The notes under the pieces: generated by a model | Told to the model about the DNA's origin: nothing | What the model saw: the letters and a program-made list of their open reading frames with translations, nothing else | The model's database searches: none | In this document: positions 6,511-63,210 of the stretch, piece after piece | Layout: each line of letters begins with the position of its first letter | Numbering within the stretch: position 1 is the stretch's first letter | Program-made: the position numbers and the translations under genes | NCBI RefSeq assembly: GCF_036321535.1 | Contig: NC_087436.1 | Span: 58,220,001-58,284,000 of the forward strand | From: Camelus dromedarius | Lineage: Eukaryota | Reading direction: 5' to 3' | Length of the DNA: 64,000 nucleotides

Positions 6511-7930
6511 AGAGAGAGATGAATTGAAAATATAGGTACACTATATCCTTACCTATCTTTATTTTTTACCACGAAAACAGGTGACTTATTACACAAGCTA
6601 GAATTTATAATGTGATAATATATCCAATGTGTCACTGTGTACAATAAATTTTTCTTATATGAATCAGCAAAACACATAATACTTTTAGAGATTTTATCAC
6701 TTAAGATCATGACTGTGTTTTTCCAGATATATCCATTTTATTCTAAAAGACACATATATAAGAACTATTTGTTTACCTTCCCCCAAAATAATCTTCAAAA
6801 ATTACTATCCAAGGAATCCCACCTACCTATCTTTAAAATTAATAGTATTTATCCATTGTAAAGTTATCTCTCCTCGTTTTTAAACACACATAAGCAGTGC
6901 ACTGCAAGCTGTTACTGAATTACAAGTTTTATAAAATATTTCACTAAATCCAAAGAAATTCCATATCAGATACTATTATTAGAATCTCTGCTTTTCTGAA
7001 GAAATATCTAGGCTTTTAAATTGTTTTTCCAGACAGCAAGTGAATAAATGTAGGATTTAATCTATACACCTGAGTCAAGTGCCTAAGCCCTTTTGTATCA
7101 AATATTTATCCATCTTCCCTTAGAAGATACTTATATAAAATATTTGTAATTCTAGCATATTTTACCTTCATACACAAACACTCTTTCCTTCACCTTATAG
7201 ATGCTTTCTACTAAATTCTGGTATTTATTTTGCCTGGTTATATTTCAGAAATCACTATATAAACTTACAAACAGACAAGGCAACAAGATTTAATGTATTA
7301 GGAGTAGTAGATTTTAATGCAACTAAATCAGAAACAATCAAATATTCAGTAAGACAGATTTTAAAAATTACTATTTAGGTATATAAGATTGAAGTATTTC
7401 AGGCATCAATACATTGATATAATATTAGTAAAATATTTTATAGTGCTCAAGTATAAAAACTTAAAACAATTTCCTATACTTTCTTTTTATCTAAATTAAT
7501 AGAAAAATCAATGTGTAGCATTTTTTGTTGAAGGGTGGAAATTTATATTTTTAACTAGCTGATACCAAGACTTCATTTATCTTTCTGAGGTTTAAAATAG
7601 CTTGCCTCTAACTTTCAGCTAGCTCATTTGATTAATTTGGAGATTGGTCAGACCTATAAATTAGATATTAACTTATTATATATCCATACATGTATATACA
7701 TGCTTCCATTATACTAAGCAAAATGAAGGCACACTTATGTAAATGTAGTTGTCTTTGATGGTGATGATATATATTCTTGCATGTATAATGTCAGAGATAG
7801 AACTTACATCATATTTATAAGAATGTTGTAGTTAAAAGTGTTAACACTTAGTTGAGATGTTTTTGATTGCCATTTGTATGGAAAACACTATTCCAGGGCA
7901 TAAAGAGAAGGATAAGAATTTCTGTCTTCT

Positions 7931-8133
7931 CAGGCATATGTAGAACAGATAAACAAGACTATACTGTACAGCACAGGGAAATATATACAAGATCTTGTGG
8001 TAGCTCATAGCGAAAAAAAATGTGACAATGAATATATGTATGTTCATGTATAACTGAAAAATTGTGCTCTACACTGGAATTCTACACAACATTGTAAAAT
8101 GACTATAACTCAGTAAAAAATGTTTTTTAAAAA
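7931..8133 (+). mobile_element. Young 5'-truncated LINE-1 3'-end insertion (~200 bp)
   Basis: Closely matches the 3'UTR at ~47870-48060. Short A tail. Perfect 17-bp TSD aagaatttctgtcttct at 7914-7930 and 8134-8150. Confidence 0.92.
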
Positions 8134-8195
8134 AAGAATTTCTGTCTTCTAAGAAAGGTTCAAAGGTTGTTCAAAGGGTCACTAAATAAGTATAT

Positions 8196-36600: not shown

Positions 36601-39349
36601 AAATGAGACATTAATGTACAAAGTGATATCATCAAAAAAAGTCACACCCATGGGTAAAGTCTAGATAGTTATTTGTTAATATCCAGAAACATATGAGGGA
36701 AAACGTTAACTCACTGGCAAAACAAAGATGAATTTTTTCCCGTTACTAATACTACTACAAATAGGAAGAAGGAAAGTTGAAGTTACAGATTTTTTTTTTA
36801 ATTTGACAATGTAGAGTTAATAAATATTTTGAATGAGGTCAAAACTTCTAAATGGAAACAATGTATTTGCTATTTGAAATTATTCACTTCAGTATTCAGA
36901 GACTGTTACTAGCTGGTTTTTAAGTCTATAGGTCACTTTGTTCAAACTTTTAAATGACAACACCTAAGTAAGGAAATAATATAAAATTCTCTTTCTTACT
37001 TGTTTGTTAGCATTTTGAGACAGTCTGACAAACCTATGTTTACAAAACTGCTAAGAGTGATCTGTAAGAATAAAATCATGTAAATTTGCCATTTTTTGAA
37101 GGTTAAAATAATACTTCTAAGTCAATCCCAATTCTATAAAAAAAAGCATTTAAAACCCCACTATACTGTTATCATGAATTGAATTTTCATAGCATTTTCT
37201 TTGGAACTATTCAAAAGTTCAGTTAAACAAGCAAAAGTCATAATGAATATATTAAAAATTTACAATCACAACATATCTCAAGCTACTTTTACATAAAAGC
37301 AAGATATTATATTTATTCAATTCAAAATTTCACCAATAAAGTGAAAACAGAAGTAGAAGAAGAAGAAGATGGAGGAGGAGGAACATTTATATAACTATCA
37401 GTTTTCAAAACACTTTGGAAAAATTATCTCATTTTATCCTTACAACAATCTTGGAAAACAGATATCATTTTCTATTTTGCTGAAAACTTCCTCTATAAAG
37501 TTAAGTTGCCCCACCCTCTATCACTCTTTTTAGCACTAATCCACATTCTGTCTGAACATGAAGACCTGAACCTTTTCACAAAACTGCTTCCTCATCCTTT
37601 AGTAATCCTACTTTCAACACTCCAGATCACCACCTTTCTTTCTCATTTTTCCTTTTCCTTCTTCATCATGTATGATGCATACTGCTTTCTCCAGTTTGTA
37701 ACTGTCTTTTTCTGTACATTTCCAGGTCCACCTCAAGATTATGCTATCTAATCACATAAGTTTAAAAACCAAGTAATTAAAGTTCCTCAAATTATTATTG
37801 AAAAGTAAATTAGTTCTGAGTAAATTGTTTGGTGTTCTACTAACAATAACATGTATAGACAATAATAAGGGAATTTGTGAAACTTATTTTGAAATCTCAG
37901 ATGGTAATTTTATAGATAAGCTCAGTGAAAACAGACGAGTATTTACTAAAATAAATATATGAAATAAAAATACAGATAAAATAACACATAAATAGGTGAT
38001 TTTCAGTCTTTATTTTGTAAAATTATCATTCAAAGCAAAGCCTTTTCAGATTTAAAATTATGATAACAAGATAATAAAGACCCTAAGAGAATAAGTATTA
38101 GCAAAAATAGTATTTCAAAACTAAAATTCTAACAAAAATTAGGAGTGTTCTCAAAGTATCAATAAACCTGCCATTTGAGGACAACAGCCATGTCTGAATA
38201 TGATTCAACATCATATATACATCTGCAAGATGATGATAATGAAATGTACAACTTTTCTGTTTCAATGAATTTTTCATTCATTCAATCAGTAAACATTTAT
38301 AAACTTCCATTATATTTGAGACACTGTACTAGGCATTAAGGGGACTAAAATTAAATATAGAAAAGTCCTTAGCCTTAAAATTAAAAATTAGCAATTATAA
38401 TACATTTAGTTTACAATAGAGAAAATCAAAATATACAAAAAAAACTTCTAATATAGATCTTAAAATTTTACTGAGATACACAACTATGAAATGTACATAT
38501 CTTAAGTAAATAGCTCCTTTAATTTTACATATGCCCTTGTAGCATATATGAAACTGTAATGTGAAAAATATGTAAAAAGCACTCAGATCAACATATAGAA
38601 CATATCCTATACCTCAAAGGCTCCTTCCTAATATTCTTTTGTAAAATGTAGAAGTTATGTTTGAAGAACAAGAGCCAAATAGTAAACAGTGAAATATACA
38701 TGAAAACTTGGCTTACAATATTCTAAAAACTAAGAATGTAGATAGTTGTGTATTTAGAAAATCATGAAACAGTAAAAATTTACAACTATCTAATTTGTTT
38801 TATAATGTACTGAAAATTTTAATGTGAATTTCAATCACTTTGAGGATTTTAATCTTTGAAATTTAAAATAATTAAATTTAAATAGCATGAGAAATAACTG
38901 TATAAAGTTATATCAATATTGATTTCAAATAGGTAATACTTGGAAACTTCAGTTAATTGTCTCTACCTATTTATCTGAGAATGTATAAATTACTAGATTA
39001 GTATAATAGTCATGGTAAAAGATTTTTGTTTCTGTTGTTTAGGCATAAAAAAAGTCCTTACAGATAAGTATACTAGTCATTTGCCAATGCCCTCAGAAAA
39101 GAATAATGTTTAATGAAATATCTGGATGAGTAGACACACAATAATACATGATCAGAAGGCATAAAAAGAAGTCTTAATCCCTTTAGCTTTCTATTATCAT
39201 GCAAGAACAGCCCAACTGTGGGATGAGAAACACACACAGAATATTCACTACCTTGAACAGAAGGTTTAACAGGCCCTGTATGGGAATAAGCTTTGCCAGT
39301 GTTACTTATCTAAAATAAGTCCATATTCATTCTTTATTTTCCCAGCGTA

Positions 39350-39566
39350 CTTTTTTTTTAAACTGATGTATAGTCAGTTTACAATGTTGTGTCAATTTCT
39401 GATGTATAGCGTAATGTTTCACTCATACGTATACATACATATATTCGTTTTCGTATTTTTTCATTATAGGTTACTACAAGATATTGAATATAGTTCCCTA
39501 TGCTATACAGAAGAAACTTGTATATCTATGTTATACATAGTAGTTGGTATCTGCAAATCTTGAACT
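39350..39566 (-). mobile_element. LINE-1 3'-end fragment (artiodactyl-type)
   Basis: Poly-T then 'tttacaatgttgtgtcaatttctgatgtatagc...tattgaatatagttccctatgctatacag'. Confidence 0.85.
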
Positions 39567-39567
39567 T

Positions 39568-39680
39568 GGGGGAGGGTATAACTCAGTTGTAGAGTAACTG
39601 CTTAGCATGCACAAGTTCCTAGGTTCAATCCCCAATACCTCTATTAAAAAAATAAAATAAAACAGCAAAAAAAAAAAAAA
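39568..39680 (+). mobile_element. tRNA-derived SINE, Vic-1-like (Camelidae)
   Basis: GGGGAGGGTATAACTCAGTTGTAGAG (A-box), then GCTTAGCATGCA, then GGTTCAATCCC (B-box), followed by an A-rich tail. Confidence 0.8.
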
Positions 39681-43200: not shown

Positions 43201-45007
43201 TGACTACTTCTACCTCTGCCTTGGCTGAGCTAGGTTACATGTTCTTATAGCCTTTATATTGCCTCTTCATAGCACTTAACACAATTAAAATTAATAGTTA
43301 CATCAATTATTTTTAGTATAGCTCTCCACTGATTGCTTATAAATTCAAACAGATCAGGGATCATGACTTTCTTGTTCAATGTAGCAGGGCACATACAATT
43401 TTTAAAAACTAAATGCCTGTGCAACCACATATGTAACTAAGACAAGATGATTTGCTTAGCAGCATTTGAGTGGCACATATGTAGTAAAATTATGACAAAG
43501 CTCTAAATTAGACCTTAAATTTTACCCTCCAAAATTGGATTTATTTTCTTATTTCTCAGTGATTGCTAAATGGAAAATGATACTGTGACCTCTTTTAAAT
43601 AGACAGATTACATAAAAATTAAAATAATGAGGATCTTGTAACTTTTTCATTTGAATTTATGGGAAATGATTAAAAATCATGATGTTAACTAATCTTAATT
43701 TACATAATATCACTTGAAAGCACATTACTTATGTTTTATTATTAGTGATTTATTCAGTTGTAGGTATAAATATGAGCTTTAAAAGAGAATAGAAAGATTT
43801 TTATACTATATTTTACATTTAATTAGCAAAGATAAGTATCTTAAAATGCTTAAATCTCACCAAAGTTCATGCTGGTTTCAAGAGATGCTTATTTATGTTA
43901 TATTTCTGTAATAATATTTATGATACAGTTACTACATTATGAGCACAGGGTACATAACTAAAACACAATAAAGTGAAAACATAAATATGTTTGTTAGATG
44001 ATTTCTAAATCTTAGAAACCTAGGGAACTATAATATAATTGGTGAAAATGGATTTGATGTTTCAAAAGATACTTCTGCTATGTTTTTCCTTCAGCTGACC
44101 CCAGAATGGCATTTCAAAGGGAATTACAAAGCTATTAAATATCCACAGTTCAATCCCCATACTTATTGGTGTCAGAAACATATGGAAATGGATTAATAAT
44201 ATTACAGATTGTCCTGGCAGTCATTTCATTTGATTAGACTTTTATTGCATAGAATGGATATTTAAGAAGTAAAGGTGATACAAATGAATAAAAGTAAAGG
44301 AATACTCTGCTTGCAGATCATGTAAACTCTCTTTGTGCTGAACTAATCAGCAGGCGATTTTTCTGGTATGACTTGTCAGAGAATGTAAATTAACCAACAA
44401 TATGAAGCCTCGGAGACTAAGGCAACATCTGCAGTGGATGCTGAGGTTCAGGGAACGTAGCATCACCTTTTAATAAGGTAGGAATTGATGTGTCTGCGTC
44501 AGTGAGACAACGCTGCTCACCATAAAACAGGTCCCATGACAGAAACAGTAATATGGGCTTTTGCACACTGTGCTATAATTTAAACTCTTTACTTTTATTT
44601 TCCAGATGAAACGTGGGAAAGTGGAGTTCAGTTTGCTTCAAACTGCAGGCAATCTTTGACGACACAGTATTATGAAGAGACCATGGGTCCCAAACTTACA
44701 AGATGCATAATCTTTGATAAATAATTTTTCAAAGTGCCTCAGTTTTATTCTTAGTAAAAGGACAGTAATATCTATGACATAGAGTTTTGGAAAAGAATAT
44801 TGTTTATGAAAAAATCCAATACTGTGGCTAAGATAAAGCATGTTATACTTTCATGTAACACTCTTAGTTCACCTACCATGTGCCAGTTAGATAAAGCATT
44901 TCACTGCTTCTCCCTCTTTGTTGTATAAAATCCCTTTATATAGGTGAAGATGTAATTCTCACTGTTGACTCAAGTTGCACTGACTGCAGGAAGAAAAAGA
45001 GGAGGGA

Positions 45008-46342
45008 GGGGGGAGAAGCAAAATGGCAGAGTAGAAGGACGCTTGTAGCTCACCCTCTCCCACAAATACACCAAAACTCACATCTATGGACCCACTCAGC
45101 CAACCAGAGCACCTGCCGAACTCCAACAGAACATCGCCCTCTTCGAAAGACAAAGATTCCAAAAATCGGGTAGGAAAAGAGAAAAAAGAAAAGGCAAAAC
45201 AGTGCGGGACTGATCCCACGGGGAGGGAGTGGCAAAGGAGGACTGGCGCTCATTCACTGGGTTTTCCCTCTCCAACGGAGAGGCCAGTGGGACAGAAGGA
45301 GAACCTCTGAGGCTCAGATATGCCCTGAGCACCCCTTGTCTGACAGAACTGAGTTAAACGGGCACAAAGGGTCCCCATGACACCCAGCCCGAGACGCAAG
45401 ATGACAGCTGGGGCTGGGGCAGGTGGCCCGAGCTGGGCGGAGGACTCGAGCGGCTGCACTGAGGCAGCCCCAGGGGACTGCAGGGTGCTGCGCACCATGG
45501 ATGGGAGGGGGTACGGAGCAGAACCACCTCGGTCTCCCATAAAATGCGGAAAAAAAGCAAGCAATACAGCTGGTGTGCCCTGGGGGGAGGGGCACCATAG
45601 ACTCTGTCTCCTCAGACCTGAGCTGCCATTACTGGCACTTCTCACGAGAAGACAGGCGGGACTCAGCCACAGCCACCATATTCTCCTGTGCACAGCACGC
45701 AGACAGCGGTGGGGCCGAAACCTGAATCCACACCCAGGGGCTCTGCAACCGCCTATGTAGGACTAAGACTTGTTTACACCTGGAGGCAGATAGGATCTTT
45801 CTTCCCTGGCACCTCAGAGAACTCGTGCTGCCAAGACAAACAAGGAGCTGAGATTTGGCACAGAGCAGAGGCGGGGCCATTCTGCGGTCTTCCCCCAGCT
45901 CACCTTTGGAGCACTGACCTGAGGCGGAGTGGGCAGCTGCATAGAGCAGTGGAGCGACCGGCACCAGGAAAGGACAGGCGGCAACCTGCTTTCCTGGCAG
46001 GAACGCAGCACCTGACCATGGTGCTGGAAAGGGGCGTGATCTGCCCACCTGCCTCCCCTGAGCACAGCATCTGACTGAGGCATCAGGAGGGGGAGTGACC
46101 CACCTGCCCACCGGATAAGAGCTCAGTACCTGACGCAGTGCTGGGAGGGGGTGCGATCTGCTAGCTGACAGCCACTGGGAGCAGCACAGAAGAGGGCGCC
46201 AACAGAGGGCCTCTGGAAACAGCAAGCTGAGTTTGCGAAACAGGGCGAAGACATAAAGAACTCTCAATAAAATCATTAAGAGCATACCGTCTCCAGGAGA
46301 ACTAGATAACTGATACTCCTTAAGCCACATTGCCAGAGAGGT
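45008..46342 (+). promoter_or_regulatory. L1 5'UTR internal Pol II promoter (CpG-rich) with YY1-like site at 45019-45027
   Basis: The only CpG-rich stretch in the window. CAAAATGGC near the 5' end, as is typical of L1 5'UTRs. Confidence 0.75.
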
Positions 46343-47242
46343 ATGAGCAATATGAGGAAGCCGAGGAACCACTCCCAATTAAAAGATCAAGAAAAATCCC
46401 CTGAAAGCACAATCAAGGAAATAGACATCGATGGCCTACTAGATCAAGATTTCAAAAAAGGAGTGATCAAAGTATTGAAGTAACTAAAAGAAACAGTGCT
46501 TAGAGATATAACATATATCAAAAATGAAATAGAAGCTATAAAGAAGAACCAAGGAGAATTAGTAAACTCATTTGCTGAGATGAGAGCTGACCTAAAGGCT
46601 CTACAAAGCAGGCTAGATAATGCAGAGGAACGACTAAGTGACCTAGAAGACAGGACAACAGAAAGCACCCAATCAGAACAGCTGAGAGAAAAACAAATAA
46701 AAAACAATGAAAACAATATAAGGGACCTATGGGATAATATAAAGCGTGCCAATCTATGCATAATAGGGGTTCCAGAAGGGGAAGACAGAACAAAGGGAAT
46801 TGAAAAGGTATTTGAAGAAATCATGACTGAAAACTTCCCAAACCTAAAGGAATCAGATATCCAAGTACAGGAGGCTCAGAGGGTCCCAAACAGGAAGACC
46901 CCAAACAGACCCACACCAAGACATATTATAATCAAGATGGTCAGAGTCAAGGATAAAGAAATGATCCTAAAGGCAGCAAGAGAAAATCAAAGAGTGAGTT
47001 ACAAGGGAACCCCCATAAGGCTCTCAGCTGATTTCTCTACACAAACACTACAGGCCAGAAGGGAGTGGCAAGATACATTCAAAGTCCTGAGTGAAAAAAA
47101 GATGCAGCCTAGGATACTCTATCCAGCAAGGCTATCCTTTAGAATAGAAGGAGAGAGAAAGAACTTCACAGACAAGCAAAAACTAAAAGAGTTTAGCAAC
47201 ACTAAACCCATGCTAAAAGAAATACTGACAGGTCTACTCTAA
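46343..47242 (+). pseudogene. LINE-1 ORF1p (coiled coil, RRM and CTD; Transposase_22-type) with one in-frame stop at 46481-46483
   Basis: ATG at 46343 is in frame with the 248-aa ORF 46496-47242. Motifs LWDNIKRANLCIIGVPEGE, TPRHIIIK, YKGTPIRLSADFS, ARREW and YPARLSF are present. Confidence 0.92.
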
Positions 47243-47383
47243 ATAGAAAAGAAGCGGGATGCTACAAAAATGAGAAACCCGTAACTGGAAAGGAGATAAC
47301 GGCCATGAATTACAAAAAGAATAAACACAAAATTGTAAAAGAAAACATCTAAATCATTAAGAGTGGGAGAGGGAAGCAAGGAA

Positions 47384-47754
47384 AGCCATTGTGGAAAACA
47401 GTATGGAGATTCCTCAAAAGACTAGGAATATACTTACCATGTAACCCAGGAATCCTGCTCCTGGGCATAAATCCAGAAGGAACCCTACTTCAAAATGACA
47501 CCTGCACCACAATGTTCATAGCAGCACTATTTACAATAGCCAAGACATGGAAACAGCTTAAATGTCCATCAACAGATGACTGTGTAAAGAACATGTGGTA
47601 TATTTATACGATGGAATACTATTCAGCCATAAAAAACGACAACATAACGCCATTTGCAGGAACATGGATGTTCCTTGAGAATGTAATTCTAGGTGTAGTA
47701 AGCCAGAAAGAGAAAGAAAAATACCATATGAGATCGCTCATATGAGGAATCTAA
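47384..47754 (+). pseudogene. LINE-1 ORF2p extreme C-terminal remnant
   Basis: WKTVWRFLK...[15 protein letters not shown]...[13 protein letters not shown]. Collinear with 54606-54965. No upstream RT or CCHC region. Confidence 0.9.
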
Positions 47755-48239
47755 AATCAAAACAAAACAAAACATAAATACAAAACAGAAACAGACTCAT
47801 AGACATAGAATACAAACTTGTGGTTGCCAAGAGAGTGGGGGGTGGGAAGGGGCAGACTGGGATTTTAAAATGCAGAATAGATAAACAAGATTATACTGTA
47901 TAGCACGGGGAAATATATACAAGATCTTGTGGTAGCTCATAGTGAAAAAAAATGTGACAATGAATATATGTATATTCGTGTATAACTGGAAAACTGTGCT
48001 CTACACTAGAATTTGACAACATTGTAAAATGACTATTACTTAAGAAAAAAAATGTTAAGAAAAAAAAAAGAAAACAGAAAAAGAGGAGGGAACAGGAAAC
48101 CAAGGACAGAGGGGTAGACAGAAAGGTGAGAAAGTAGAATAAGAAACAGTGCTACATATGAATGACAATGAGACTTACAGTTAGTGTTGGTCGACACTGA
48201 CTGAATCCAACATTCATTTCTCCTTTCTGTATGTCTTTC

Positions 48240-48830
48240 TATATAGTACAGAATGAGAAAGGAAAGCATTCATTTGCTAAATTCCCTTGTTGCTAGGGTT
48301 TTAGATGTCAGTTATATTCTCCCAATCAGACAGAATTTAAGAAGGTTTGGAATGAAAAAGTGAGGCAGAAGCTGTTTTTTATTTTACTGGCAAACATGGT
48401 CATGAAGGTCATCTATTTTTTTCTTCAACATTAACTGAGTTTCCAGTGTCCCATAATCATTTTTGTAGGTAAGGAAGGGCTAGACATGGCAGACTGAAGT
48501 CTGGCAACTTATGAATTTTCTCATACAGTTCTGAATCTAGCAACAGTAAATTTAGTGGCTTTTTGACTATAGTAGCTCCCTGACAGTGGATGTATGAGGA
48601 CCATGGTCCTGTGGAGTCATTCTCAAGCCAGTGGCTTCTCATCAAAAGTCGTTAGCTACCTTGGGTTGCTCAGTTCAGTGGGGGTGGCTTTGTTATTCAT
48701 TTTTGACAGTTCAATCTAGAATATGTTTCTTCAACCCTACCAAGGCATTTAATAACCTGTCCAAAATCCCTTTTTTATTTAAACTAGTTAAATGGATTCC
48801 ATTCTCTGAAACTGAACCATGCAGATAGAG
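48240..48830 (+). mobile_element. Old ERVL-class (LTR16-like) LTR remnant
   Basis: 'ttcccttgttgctagggtt...tcccaatcagac' and a 3' end 'ccttttttatttaaactagtt...aactgaacc'. Family uncertain. Confidence 0.4.
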
Positions 48831-50344
48831 ATTCTAATAAAGCTTCATAAAAGCTATAACCAATGGAGGAATTATGTGCACAATCAACAACTTAGACCAT
48901 TTGAAAGTTAACACTTATTAAGTCTTAATATATAATTTTTTCTTAAAACTGTATGTTTTCCACTCAAATAAAAAGAATGAAATACATAAAAAATTACTAA
49001 TCAACCACCAGTTACGTTGTATCAAGCAAAGCACAATGATAGAAGGAAGGAAAAACAATAGTACTACTTTAAATGAGCTCACAATCTATATAGGGAATGA
49101 CAAATCCAGAAGAATTTTAAATATAAGACAAAGTGTGGAAAGCAGAGCAAAGTAAGAGTGCTCTAGCAGCACAGAGGAAAGGAAGTGATTATGGCTGTGG
49201 TAATGAGGGAGGGATAATAGTACTTCTTGTGATTCTAGTGATTACAATCTCTTGGGAAAATTTTTTCTCAAAGTGGAATCCACAAAACCAGTTCTCAGAG
49301 GTTAATAAGTTCTTTATAAAGCAATGTATCTCAGTAATATGTTTGGGGAAACTGGGTTAAACCAAAATATGTTTTGTCTTTTAGAACTATGCACAGACTT
49401 TAATACCTAATGTATGTTGGGTATCTCTTTTAAAAAGGAACACAATCACAGTATTTCAAACTTTTCCTTGACAAGAGAACAACAGAATGCAGTCTTCATG
49501 GACTATCTCTCAGGGTTACAGTTGTAAAGAACACACTTTGAAAATAAAATGTGACATAAAGTAAATAACAGATTTATTAATCCAGAAAAATGGTCATTGT
49601 GTATAATGATCATTTTTACAACTAGTAGCTAAGCTGAAAAGTATAATGCCATGCTAAAAGAATTCAGACATTCAAGAGAAAATGACAGAATTTTTTTCTT
49701 TTTGTTTTGCAAAACACAGTGATGTGTAAAAGGGAACCACAGTTTGGAATAATCACATGACGTCAAGGTAACAGATACAACTACCAGTCATGATTAACTG
49801 GCAGTTATGGAAACTGAAAGATATTTTTTTTTTCAAAGGATTTTGACTTGATGTGCTAGAGGAAAATTTTCAATGCAAAACACACCTATGCACACATGAA
49901 CACACATACAATACCAGCAAAGCAGAAGTCTGTGTAATAACTTCTCAAAAAAGCCAAAAACTTATCACAGGAAATTTCTTGAAAATGTTTTGTGGTTAAA
50001 AATAAAAACTATTTGATTTCATGGCACTGAAATTAAAGGTGTTTTTCAACCATTAATTTTTTTTTCGGTATTGCTCCTTATGCTTTACTAAGATAAAAAT
50101 ATTTCACTTAATAGGTTTTAAAGTACACAAAAAACAGTTAAATTAATAATTCACAGAATAAAAAAAAACATAGCTAACATTTAATGAATACTAATTATGT
50201 GCCAGCTACTATTTTAAATGGTTTGTATACAGTAACTATTTTGTCTTCAAAATAATTCTCTGAATAGATACTATTACTATCTCAATTTTATGGATTATGA
50301 AACTAAAACTTGGGGAAATCTAGCCCCCTCTTCAAGGTCACTAC

Positions 50345-51903: not shown

Positions 51904-51935
<32 letters not shown>
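51904..51935. repeat. Poly(A) tract
   Basis: Direct read. Confidence 0.95.
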
Positions 51936-51940
<5 letters not shown>

Positions 51941-52792: not shown

Positions 52793-55293
52793 AGAAATCC
52801 TCACCAAAGTTTTAGCAAATAGAATCCAACAACACATAAAAAAGATTATACATCATGACCAAGTGGTGTTCATCCCAGGGACACACAAGGCTGGTTCAAC
52901 ATACGCAAATCAATCACTGTAATACATCACATCAACAAGAGAAAGGACAAATACCACATGATCATCTCAATCGATGCAGAAAAAGCATTTGATAAAATTC
53001 AACACCCATTTATGATAAAAACTCTAGCCAAAGTGGGTATAGAGGGAACATATCTCAACATAATAAAAGCTATATATGACAAACCTACAGCCAGCATAGT
53101 ACTCAACGGTGAAAAACTCAAAAGCTTCCCACTAAAATCTGGGACAAGACAAGGATGCCCACTATCACCACTCCTAGTCAACATAGTCCTGGAAGTCCTA
53201 GCCACAGCAGTCAGGCAAGAGAAAGAAATAAAAGGGATCCAAACTGGAAAAGAAGAGGTAAAAGTGTCATTATATGCCGACGACATGTTGCTATAATAGA
53301 AAACCCTAAAAGGTCCACACAAAAGCTACTAGAGCTGATTGAAGAATTCAGCAAGGTAGCAGGTTACAAAATTAACGTTCAAAAATCAGTTACATTTCTT
53401 TACACTAACGATAAATCAACAGAAGAAGAAAGTAAAGAAACAATCCCCTTTAAAATAGCACCCAAAGTAATAAAATATCTGGGAATAAATCTAACCAAGG
53501 AGGTGAAAGAATTATACACAGAAAACTATAAACCATTGATGAAGGAAATTAAAGAAGACTTTAAAAAATGGAAAGATATTCCATGCTCTTGGATTGGAAG
53601 AATCAATATTGTTAAAATGGTCACACTGCCCAAGGCAATCTACAGATTTAATGCAATCCCTATCCAATTACCCAGGACATATTTCACAGAACTAGAAAAA
53701 ATCATAATAAAATTCATATGGAACCATCAAAGACCTAGAATTGCCAAAGCATTACTGAAGAGAAAGAAAGAGGCTGGAGGAATAACTCTCCCAGACTTCA
53801 GACAATACTATAGAGCTACAGTCATCAAGACAGCATGGTATTGGTACCAAAACAGACATATAGACCAATGGAACAGAATAGAGAGCCCAGAAATGAACCC
53901 ACAAACTTTTGGTCAACTCATCTTTGACAAAGGAGGCAAGAATATACATTGGAATAAAGACAGTCTCTTCAGCAAATGGTGTTGGGAAAACTGGACAGCA
54001 GCATGTAAAACAATGAAGCTAGAACACTCCCTTACACCATATACAAAAATCAACTCAAAATGGATTAAAGACTTAAACATAAGACAAGATACAATAAACC
54101 TCCTAGAGGAAAACATAGGCAAAACATTATCTGACATACATTTCAAAAATTTTCTCCTAGAAGAAATAAAAGCAAGAATAAACAAATGGGACCTAATGAA
54201 ACTTACAAGCTTCTGCACAGCAAAGGAAACCAGAAATAAAACAAGAAGAAAACCTACGGAATGGGAGAAAATTTTTGCAAGTGAAACCGACAAAGGCTTG
54301 ATCTCCAGAATATATAAGCAGCTCATACGACTCAATAAGAAAAAAATAAACAATCCAATCCAAAAATGGGCAGAAGACCTAAACAAGCAATTCTCCAAGG
54401 AAGACATACAAATGATCAAAAAGCACATGAAAAAAATGCTCAATATCACTAATTATCAGAGAAATGCAAATCAAAACTACAATGAGGTATCACCTCACAC
54501 CAGTCAGAATGGCCGTCATTCAAAAATCCACAAATGACAAGTGCTGGAGAGGCTGTGGAGAAAGGGGAACACTCCTACACTGCTGGTGGGAATGCAGTTT
54601 GGTGCAGCCACTATGGAAAACAGTGTGGAGATTCCTCAAAAGACTAGGAATAGACTTACCATATGACCCAGGAATCCCACTCTTGGGCTTGTATCCAGAA
54701 GGAAATCTACTTCAGGATGACACCTGCACCCCAATGTTCATAGCAGCACTATTTACAATAGCCAAAACATGGAAACAGCCTAAATGTCCATCAACAGGTG
54801 ACTGGATAAAGAAGATGTGGTATGGAATACTACTCAGCCATAAAACCCGACAACATAATGCCATTTGCAGCAACATGGATGCTCCTGGAGAATGTCATTC
54901 TAAGTGAAGTAAGCCAGAAAGAGAAAGAAAAATACCATATGAGATCGCTCATATGTGGAATCTAAACAAACAAAAACAAAAACAAACAAACAAACAAAAA
55001 CAAAGCGTAAATAAAGGACAGAAATAGACTCACAGACAGAGAATACAGACTTGTGGTTACCAGGGGGGTGGAGGGTGGGAAGGGATAGACTGGGATTTCA
55101 AAATTGTAGAATAGACAACACTGTATAGCACAGGGAAATATACACAGAATGTTATGATAACTCACAGAGAAAAAAATGTGACAACGAGTGTGTATATGTC
55201 CATGAATAACTGAAAAATTGTGCTGAACACTGGAATTTGACACAACATTGTAAAATGATTATAAATCAATAAAAAATGTTAAAAAAAAAAAAA
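52793..55293 (+). mobile_element. Young 5'-truncated LINE-1 (RT region to poly-A)
   Basis: ORF2 homology, 3'UTR, aataaa and A tail. 14-bp TSD aagaatacattgat at 52779-52792 and 55294-55307. Confidence 0.95.
52797..54965 (+). pseudogene. LINE-1 ORF2p reverse transcriptase and C-terminal domain, frameshifted
   Basis: [33 protein letters not shown] and [18 protein letters not shown] are present. Frameshifts at ~52885, ~53295, ~54433 and ~54821. Confidence 0.95.
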
Positions 55294-60849: not shown

Positions 60850-63210
60850 CCTGAGATAATTTTATCAAATCTTGGTCTTCAAAAATCTAACACTTATCCC
60901 CCTGTTCTCAGCTGATGATTATGACTTACACTCTGGAAAAAAGAGAAGCAATCAAAAGAGAACAGATCTCTTTCCCAACACCAGATCTGCCAGTCTACCT
61001 ACATTTAAGTTTGAATCTGACCTCCTTATTGAACTTAACTTATCTAAGAGTATCTGATGCATATGTACTCTGGATCCCTTCACCTCATCCACTCAAGGCC
61101 TTAGGTCCTGCAGTTATCTGTTCTCTGTCTTATATTCATCAGTGACCACCTTTGCATTTTTTTTTTTTCTTTTTAAGTCTTCTCTTGGTACTATGTTCCT
61201 CTTTTGCTTCTCTGCTTCCATTCACAGAAAAACATCTCAAAAGGGATTGTCAGTTTTTGCCAATTCTTTTTGACCTCCACCCACCTGACCCTTGCCACAT
61301 ATACACTCTTTTTCTTTTCAAGCTACTTCCTGTTGGGAATTTGCCCCACTAATCCCACTAAAATTTTGTTGCAAAGGTCATCAGAGATCTCTGTCTTGCT
61401 TAAATCCAGTTGTTGATCCTTTTTATCACTTATTCAACTTTTCAGCAGCACATGACACAGTTGACCACTGTCTCATAAAAATACAGTTTCTTGGCTTCCA
61501 GGAAACAATAGTTTTCTGCTTTTCATTCTGCCTCAATGGTCACTTCTTGTAAGTGACATTTCCTGGCTCTTCTTCCTCCAATCAGTCAACTCTAAGTGTT
61601 AGTGGCCCTTTAGCTGAATCTATGACTATCTACTCTTCTATATTATAATCCTTTCAATAGATGATGTCATCTATTCTCATGACTCTAAACATGATTTTTA
61701 TGTTGATGACTTCCAATTTTACATATTCTGAACTGACTTCCACCCCTGGATTCAAATAATATGCACAGCTAATTTCTTCTCAGCTCTCATTTGATAAGAT
61801 AAAGGAGAAAACAAAAGCAGTCCCTAGCATCTGGGACGTTTCCATTTTTCTCAACATTCACAGTTTTTCAAGATGTCTATCCCCAAAGGAAATTTTGACT
61901 ACTCTTCCACATCTTCACAGTATCCTTTTCACTCCACCAACATCTTTGGAATAGATAAACCAATATCCTCCTTACTGAATTTTGTAAAACTTATGCATTC
62001 TACAGTTCATTCTCCATGCAAAACCTGAATAATTTTAAAAATATGTAAACACGATGATGCCATTTCACTACTTAAAATTAATTCTTGCAATGACTTACGC
62101 TTAGAATGAAATTAAATGCAAGATTCCTACATGAATGGCTCCTGAGTACTTTCATGATAATATATTTTTAAATTGAAGTACAATTGATTTACAACATTGT
62201 GTTAGTTTCTGGTATACAGCAAAGCGTGTATATATATATATACACACACACACATAAATATTCTTTTTAAGATTCCTTTCCATTGTAGGTTATTGCAAGA
62301 TATTGAGTATAGTTCCCTGTGCTATGAAGTAAATCCTTCTTGTTTATCTATTTTATGTATGGTAGTGTGTATCTGTTAATCCTATACTCCTAATTCCCCC
62401 CATCCATAAATTTGTTTTCTAAGTCTGTAAGTCTGTTTCTGTTTTGTAAGTTCATTTGTATTATTTTTTAGTTTCCACATACACATAATATCACATAGTA
62501 TCTCCCTTTCTCTGTCTGACTGACTTCACTCAGTATAATAATATCTAAGTCCATCCATGTTGTTGCAAATGACAATATTTCATTCTTTTTATGGCTAATA
62601 TTCCATTATATATATATATGTATACAACACCTTCTCTATCCATTTATCTGTTGATGGACCCTTAGGTTGCTTCCATATCTTGACTATTGTAAATAATGCT
62701 GCTATGAACGTTGGAGCACGTGTATCTTTTCAAAATAGACTTTTCATCTTTTCTGGATACATGCCCAAGAGTGGGGCTGCTGCATCATACAGTAACTCTA
62801 TAGTATCTTGAATGACTTCTACCTTCAATGCCCTTTTTTCATCCATACAGCTTTCCTTTTGTTCCTTGAACATATCTAGCTCTTTTCTTACACAGGCACT
62901 TTGCAAATTTTCGTTAACTCTGTCTAGAACATTCATCACTCATCACCCAGATCTTCACATGGTGAATTCCCTCAATTCAGGCTTAAATGTTTCTTCAAAG
63001 GTTTCCTTACAATTTTATCTGAAATAGCACACTCCACTCCAGTTACTCTGTATTACTTTATCTATTTTATTTTTGTAATAGTACCTAAAAAACATGAAAT
63101 TATCATCACTAGTTACTTACTTGTCTATTCAATGGTAGCTTCATACAAGCAAGAGAACTCTGCCTGTTTTTTCACTATATCCCCAGTGCTTAGAGAAGTA
63201 CCTGTCACAG
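60850..63210 (+). mobile_element. Degraded L2 element interrupted by an L1 insertion
   Basis: L2 ORF2-like 'tcagcagcacatgacacagttgaccac...cttggcttccagga'. 3' end 'ttcactatatccccagtgcttagagaagtacctg'. Confidence 0.7.
62165..62800 (-). mobile_element. LINE-1 3' fragment (artiodactyl-type) nested in L2
   Basis: Antisense 'ttgaagtacaattgatttacaacattgtgttagtttctgg...gtccatccatgttgttgcaaatg...ggttgcttccatatcttg'. The minus-strand translation includes IELLYDAAAPLLGMYPE. Confidence 0.88.

Follow-up and report, generated by a model that had tools for sequence, protein, structure and literature searches.

Non-autonomous derivatives of L1 known as HAL1 (half-L1) were reportedly described by Smit in 1999 and by Bao and Jurka in 2010. 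Passages in several papers characterise these elements as carrying ORF1 without the enzyme domains of ORF2, as well as a poly(A) tail and a target-site duplication (TSD), with EN and RT supplied by full L1s (PMC5753468, PMC5322556, PMC3627910, PMC5786205, PMC13756887), and passages in four of these papers add that HAL1 is copied in trans (PMC5753468, PMC5322556, PMC3627910, PMC5786205). In part of one of them, lineage-specific HAL1 families are treated as a recurring class with independent origins in several mammals (PMC5753468). The pig element HAL1_SSc, which corresponds to L1A6, is 3016 bp long and consists of a 5'UTR of 944 bp, an ORF1 of 906 bp, the start of the inter-ORF region (IGR) and an L1-type tail (PMC6501411). 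A further kind of internally deleted L1 is represented by the SpIREs, whose deletions are placed, in the sections of the source concerned, in the 5'UTR or across the 5'UTR and ORF1, and which are termed dead ends there (PMC5860796).

No report of a camelid HAL1 was found in the literature, and none is named in the accessible parts of PMC8605555, PMC5203782 and PMC6726744, with 0 mentions of ORF1 in those of the first and 0 mentions of HAL1 in those of the second. Bao and Jurka 2010, Repbase, Dfam or the supplements of PMC8605555 may list one, and a camelid family is possibly already catalogued. The present analysis concerns a stretch of 64,000 nucleotides of Camelus dromedarius DNA (contig NC_087436.1, positions 58,220,001 to 58,284,000), referred to below as the window. 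One unit within it is best explained, with a probability of about 0.72, as a dead copy of an old and probably extinct camelid family of the HAL1 type, which would have originated from one internal deletion and been moved in trans.

Results

The L1-derived unit occupies positions 45008..48075 on the plus strand, on which all its parts are read, and lies inside an exact 16-bp TSD. The 16-mer occurs just twice in the 64-kb window, at 44992..45007 on the 5' side and at 48076..48091 on the 3' side, so that the perfect duplication around a unit of ~3.07 kb reported by the first-pass annotation was recovered, with a total length of 3,068 bp. The 5'UTR, or internal promoter region (45008..46342, 1335 bp), is GC-rich (GC 0.52-0.62) and CpG-depleted by age (CpG o/e 0.34-0.47). 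Its first 60 bases resemble, by eye, the 5' terminus of pig L1_3_SSc; therefore, the 5' end of the unit appears to be the true L1 start, which agrees with the earlier claim of a full 5'UTR. A weak internal repeat was also seen in this region (46006-46044 against 46124-46161, 80% over 40 bp, E 0.07). The 5'UTR is followed by ORF1 (46343..47242, 900 bp), by the first 141 bp of a shortened L1 IGR (47243..47383), recognised by its likeness to pig IGRs by eye, and by a deletion junction (47383..47385) that was located by sequence comparison. Beyond the junction lie the C-terminal tip of ORF2 3' of the CCHC finger (47384..47754, 371 bp) and the L1 3'UTR with its A-rich tail (47755..48075, 321 bp). 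Self-comparison detected no EN or RT sequence between the two TSDs, as had been stated before, and what is left of ORF2 is the post-CCHC part alone. Because EN and RT are absent and a TSD is present, the unit was probably mobilised in trans. The A-tail and the TSD are both in place, and a post-insertion deletion would give identical ends.

ORF1 comprises 299 codons, with zero frameshifts and one in-frame TAA at codon 47, and the segment 46580-47239 matches three L1 ORF1p Pfam families, all above the cut-offs. The description of this ORF1 as complete thus holds for its length but not for its integrity, and since the frame, though full length, contains a premature stop, the unit is regarded as dead. 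Comparison with the intact ORF1p P0003 revealed 76% identity in the N-terminal 150 aa and 89% in the C-terminal 128 aa, while the N-terminal part showed ~50% identity to pig. P0003 itself is an intact protein of 300 aa closely similar to that of this ORF1, a single member from a 3831-bp NCBI contig, and no related loci were found with it in genome and viral contigs.

The presence of an L1-derived 5'UTR and ORF1, the absence of ORF2 EN and RT, and the A-tail and TSD support the structural assignment of the unit to HAL1, and one gene model, described below, suggests that it belongs to a family. Like the known HAL1 elements, the camel unit has, besides an ORF1 lacking the ORF2 enzyme domains, a poly(A) tail and a TSD; it differs from them in its camelid lineage, in a C-terminal remnant of ORF2 that is still recognisable over 371 bp, in keeping the parental 3'UTR in full, and in the broken ORF1 of this copy. 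Pig HAL1_SSc, the cetartiodactyl example, is similar in its size of ~3.0 kb, in its succession of 5'UTR, ORF1 and IGR start, and in its L1-type tail. However, the pig element has a 5'UTR of another family, and its 3' third is, by eye, AT-rich and not ORF2-like, with a short L1 tail behind it; in the camelid unit, by contrast, a clean internal deletion has brought the IGR up against the ORF2 tip. Because the 5'UTR differs and the 3' third is unrelated, an origin independent of pig HAL1_SSc is suggested. With the SpIREs the unit shares full-length ends, a precise internal deletion and a TSD; in contrast to them, its promoter and ORF1 are spared, ORF2 is removed, and no GT donor is supported at its breakpoint.

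The sequence at 47384-48069 aligned with positions 54606-55293 of the neighbouring L1 with 81.0% identity over 711 columns, and this match begins 4 codons downstream of the last Cys in the neighbour's CCHC motif. It had been proposed that a spacer of ~140 bp is joined at ~47383/47384 to sequence matching the neighbour from 54606, just after the CCHC motif, and both the spacer length (141 bp) and the alignment bear this out. The frame of the tip is free of frameshifts and has one premature stop near its end. The search with the ORF2-tip protein, for which the best 120 of 334 matches were listed, also returned the dromedary protein P0043, which is discussed below. The closest named matches among those listed came from Camelus bactrianus (83%), Vicugna pacos (83%) and C. 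dromedarius (75-81%), above pig (70%), in accordance with the camelid origin assumed earlier. The 3'UTR and tail are 87.5% identical to an L1 3' fragment at 7938-8135 and less similar to the neighbour L1.

Several other L1 remnants are present in the window. The neighbour L1 (52793-55293, plus strand) is 5'-truncated, extends from a partial RT to an A-tail and is framed by a 14-bp TSD (52779, 55294). The subfamily of its 3'UTR differs from that of the half-L1 (34 private changes in 195 columns), and its tip has an 11-bp deletion. The L1 3' fragment of ~200 bp at 7914-8150 (plus strand), with a 17-bp TSD (7914, 8134), is of the half-L1's 3'UTR type with just 6 private changes in 195 columns, and its length fits a half-L1 or a full-L1 source. 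An old frameshifted L1 ORF2 tip with its 3'UTR (62165-62801, minus strand), ~69% identical to the half-L1, served as the outgroup. At 39349-39640 an older L1 3' end (minus) stands, by eye, back to back with an apparent short tRNA-derived SINE (plus), and self-BLAST showed no L1 body upstream of the long pure A run at 51904-51937.

Conserved residues were changed at 10/79 positions in the tip and at 17/177 in ORF1 (13 ORF1 codons omitted), so decay was not significantly greater in the tip than in ORF1 (Fisher p 0.51). The tip pN/pS reached 1.06 on the half-L1 branch (16 non-synonymous and 4 synonymous changes) and 0.27 on the branch of the neighbour L1 (4 and 4); the contrast between branches gave p 0.17, with 6 changes unresolved, and it is also expected from plain post-insertion decay. 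The 3'UTR of the half-L1 carried 15 private changes in 195 columns. Taken together, the changes in the tip, ORF1 and 3'UTR indicate a decay of ~4-8%. At a neutral rate of ~2.5e-9 per site per year, this corresponds very roughly to about 15-30 million years, and the half-L1 family is probably extinct.

The first-pass annotation had offered two readings of the unit, a member of a family or a one-off deletion. The family reading has since gained one independent locus, P0043, by a single protein-level step from a gene model. P0043 (KAB1270384.1), a dromedary gene model on a 68-Mb contig, joins the 5'UTR of the half-L1's subfamily to an ORF2 tip via R-K-PLW. Its residues 417-663 correspond to a translation of that 5'UTR (e.g. 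26/29 and 46/80 identical in ungapped blocks) and are followed directly by R-K and the tip, and it is the one protein with a strong match to the half-L1 5'UTR among the 269 ORF2-tip proteins compared. The two residues before the PLW motif in the first set (n=102) were VQ in 88 cases, IQ in 11, and VW, LQ and RK in 1 each, RK being that of P0043; the VQ or IQ of full-length L1s thus preceded the tip motif in 99/102 occurrences. When, in the letters of the half-L1, the 5'UTR GT at 46231 was joined to the AG that precedes 47381 and lies 5 nt ahead of the tip, the exact P0043 peptide NSKLRKPLWKT was obtained. The neighbour L1 has two in-frame AG acceptors within 68 nt upstream of PLW, neither of which yields this peptide. 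As a control, the same joining logic recovered the other odd join of P0043, KQPK-SALF. Because the 5 coding bases and the AG equal the letters of the IGR, the P0043 locus most simply has the IGR-to-tip junction.

The tip of P0043 is identical to that of the half-L1 at 47/59 residues (20% diverged), and residues 1-410 or 791-941 of the model gave no match to the 64-kb window at E<=1; therefore, P0043 appears to represent a different locus. The residues after a repeated 14-aa piece were left out of this identity count, as their source is another, older L1, and the number of changed conserved tip residues in P0043 (11/79) includes the part from that L1. The P0043 model hops between L1 copies and makes the second copy known from a predicted protein, not from DNA; read in this way, the one model points to a second locus with the identical junction. 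Both carriers of the junction have Cys where 4/4 full-length-type camelid tips have Tyr, and Cys occupies this site in 3/92 other tips of the representative set. The shared Tyr-to-Cys change may be a weak sign of one source; with ~10 private changes per 59 codons, one chance overlap has, by our own estimate, a likelihood of roughly 1 in 5. Among the camelid gene models with a readable boundary (P0034, P0043, P0047 and P0154), a sample biased by gene predictors, the junction occurs in 1/4, a rate that, gene-predictor bias aside, would be hard to obtain were only two copies present.

When proteins 80-256 aa long were searched with residues 1-48 of the junction peptide, 1 candidate and nothing significant emerged, and the junction was absent from all 150 representatives among the matches listed; camelid L1s are very sparsely represented in these collections (7 camelid-like tips, the query included). 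The exact junction pattern was met 0 times in metagenome, genome and viral contigs, where a control pattern shared by the tips of camelid L1s was also met 0 times, so that this count is uninformative. In 20/24 listed sequencing runs (11 studies, two organisms), 0.70-0.72 of 503 words sampled from 44000-49000 were contained, a proportion that carries no evidence on the junction. P0160, which has GK before the tip motif, was rejected, being not of the camelid type and having no 5'UTR or spacer match. Among the annotated proteins, P0043, P0047, P0154 and P0186 are dromedary gene models that bear the name LINE-1 ORF2 protein; these four, as well as P0034 and P0050, are annotated camelid proteins composed of chained L1 pieces and host sequence, and in P0034 an L1 ORF2 C-terminus is attached to the GTF2F2 N-terminus.

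Discussion

Part of PMC6501411 gives the length of pig L1 inter-ORF regions as 390-529 bp, two subfamilies excepted. The 141-bp spacer of the camel unit tracks, by eye, the IGR consensus of pig L1B-L1D (PMC6501411, supplement file 1) over its initial 150-200 bp and ends at a purine-rich block, and because it follows the consensus only as far as this block, the deletion probably begins inside the IGR. In the reading that we prefer, the source L1 would have lost ~3.7-3.8 kb, as figured from pig IGR and ORF2 lengths, between a point 141 bp into the IGR and a point just past the CCHC finger of ORF2. The loss may have occurred via deletion or a template jump, with the 1-2 nt of microhomology that are seen at the junction. 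The shortened half-L1 would have kept the promoter, ORF1, 3'UTR and A-tail and would have been transcribed. By analogy with the known HAL1 class, its RNA may have been coated by its own ORF1p, and the ORF2p of autonomous L1s may have copied it into new sites in trans. Target-primed reverse transcription at these sites would account for the 16-bp TSD, and neutral decay of the inserted copy would have followed.

An internal deletion confined to this locus, which happened at insertion through a template jump or later, is an unlikely explanation. In its favour, the other candidate copy is single and indirect, ORF1 and the tip show similar decay, and neither the spacer nor the 5'UTR has a second match elsewhere in the 64-kb window. 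The R-K join of P0043 would then need another cause, e.g. a 5'-truncated L1 with a junction-like, purine-rich target site, or this copy having undergone a small duplication. However, for a full-length tip to provide both the AG acceptor and R-K, at least 3 specific substitutions within 7 nt would, as far as can be deduced, be required, and a truncation would have to hit this very point to within 1-2 nt, 3' of a 5'UTR that belongs to the same subfamily. The flanking exons of P0043, unmatched in the window, and the divergence of its tip also speak against this explanation.

It is improbable that the junction reflects recurrent RNA processing, in which full-length transcripts of different source L1s were spliced, or repeatedly template-jumped, from the IGR onto the CAG that precedes the tip and then retrotransposed in a SpIRE-like manner. 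The letters directly before the first tip codon, CAG in the neighbour L1 and AAG in the half-L1, do have the look of an exon join, and spliced integrated L1s are recorded for human in sections of PMC5860796; the acceptor side, however, has no polypyrimidine tract. Moreover, in the portion of the source that holds the pig L1B-L1D IGR consensus, which is not camelid and from which the camelid parent IGR may differ, the homologous breakpoint is followed by T or A, with no GT start. A donor-like GT is found there ~9 nt upstream of the breakpoint, in sequence that the half-L1 retains, and a splice origin via this site was therefore rejected. The common Cys favours one source as well, albeit weakly.

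An ATG of the IGR at 47305 shares its reading frame with the ORF2 tip as far as 47754 (plus strand). The frame that it opens spans ~149 codons and is interrupted in this copy by two stops, one between the ATG and the tip and one near the tip end. A far-reaching interpretation would be that of a camelid half-L1 family, uncatalogued and of high copy number, whose source made ORF1p and a selected mini ORF2 tail protein (IGR ATG plus C-terminal segment), aiding ORF2p capture in trans or inhibiting full L1s, or else that of a junction serving as a reusable IGR-to-tip splice which lets ordinary L1s shed ORF2. This is very unlikely: an in-frame join is expected by chance in 1 of 3 cases, and there is no sign of selection on the mini-ORF here. 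An assembly collapse, by which the 5' half of one L1 was fused to the 3' tip of another, is scarcely credible, given the exact TSD on both sides of the unit and the same junction deduced at another locus from a separately deposited dromedary gene model.

Summarizing, the half-L1 unit indicates no new mechanism, and its place is most probably among the products of an old camelid family of the HAL1 type. Half-L1s probably enter camel gene annotation, as the chain of L1 pieces in KAB1270384.1 suggests. A set of such half-L1 copies could test the need for cis-made ORF1p in trans mobilisation. If the family is confirmed, its deletion would be unusually clean and traceable to the parent L1, and camelids would join the mammals in which L1 has independently spawned an ORF1-only parasite.
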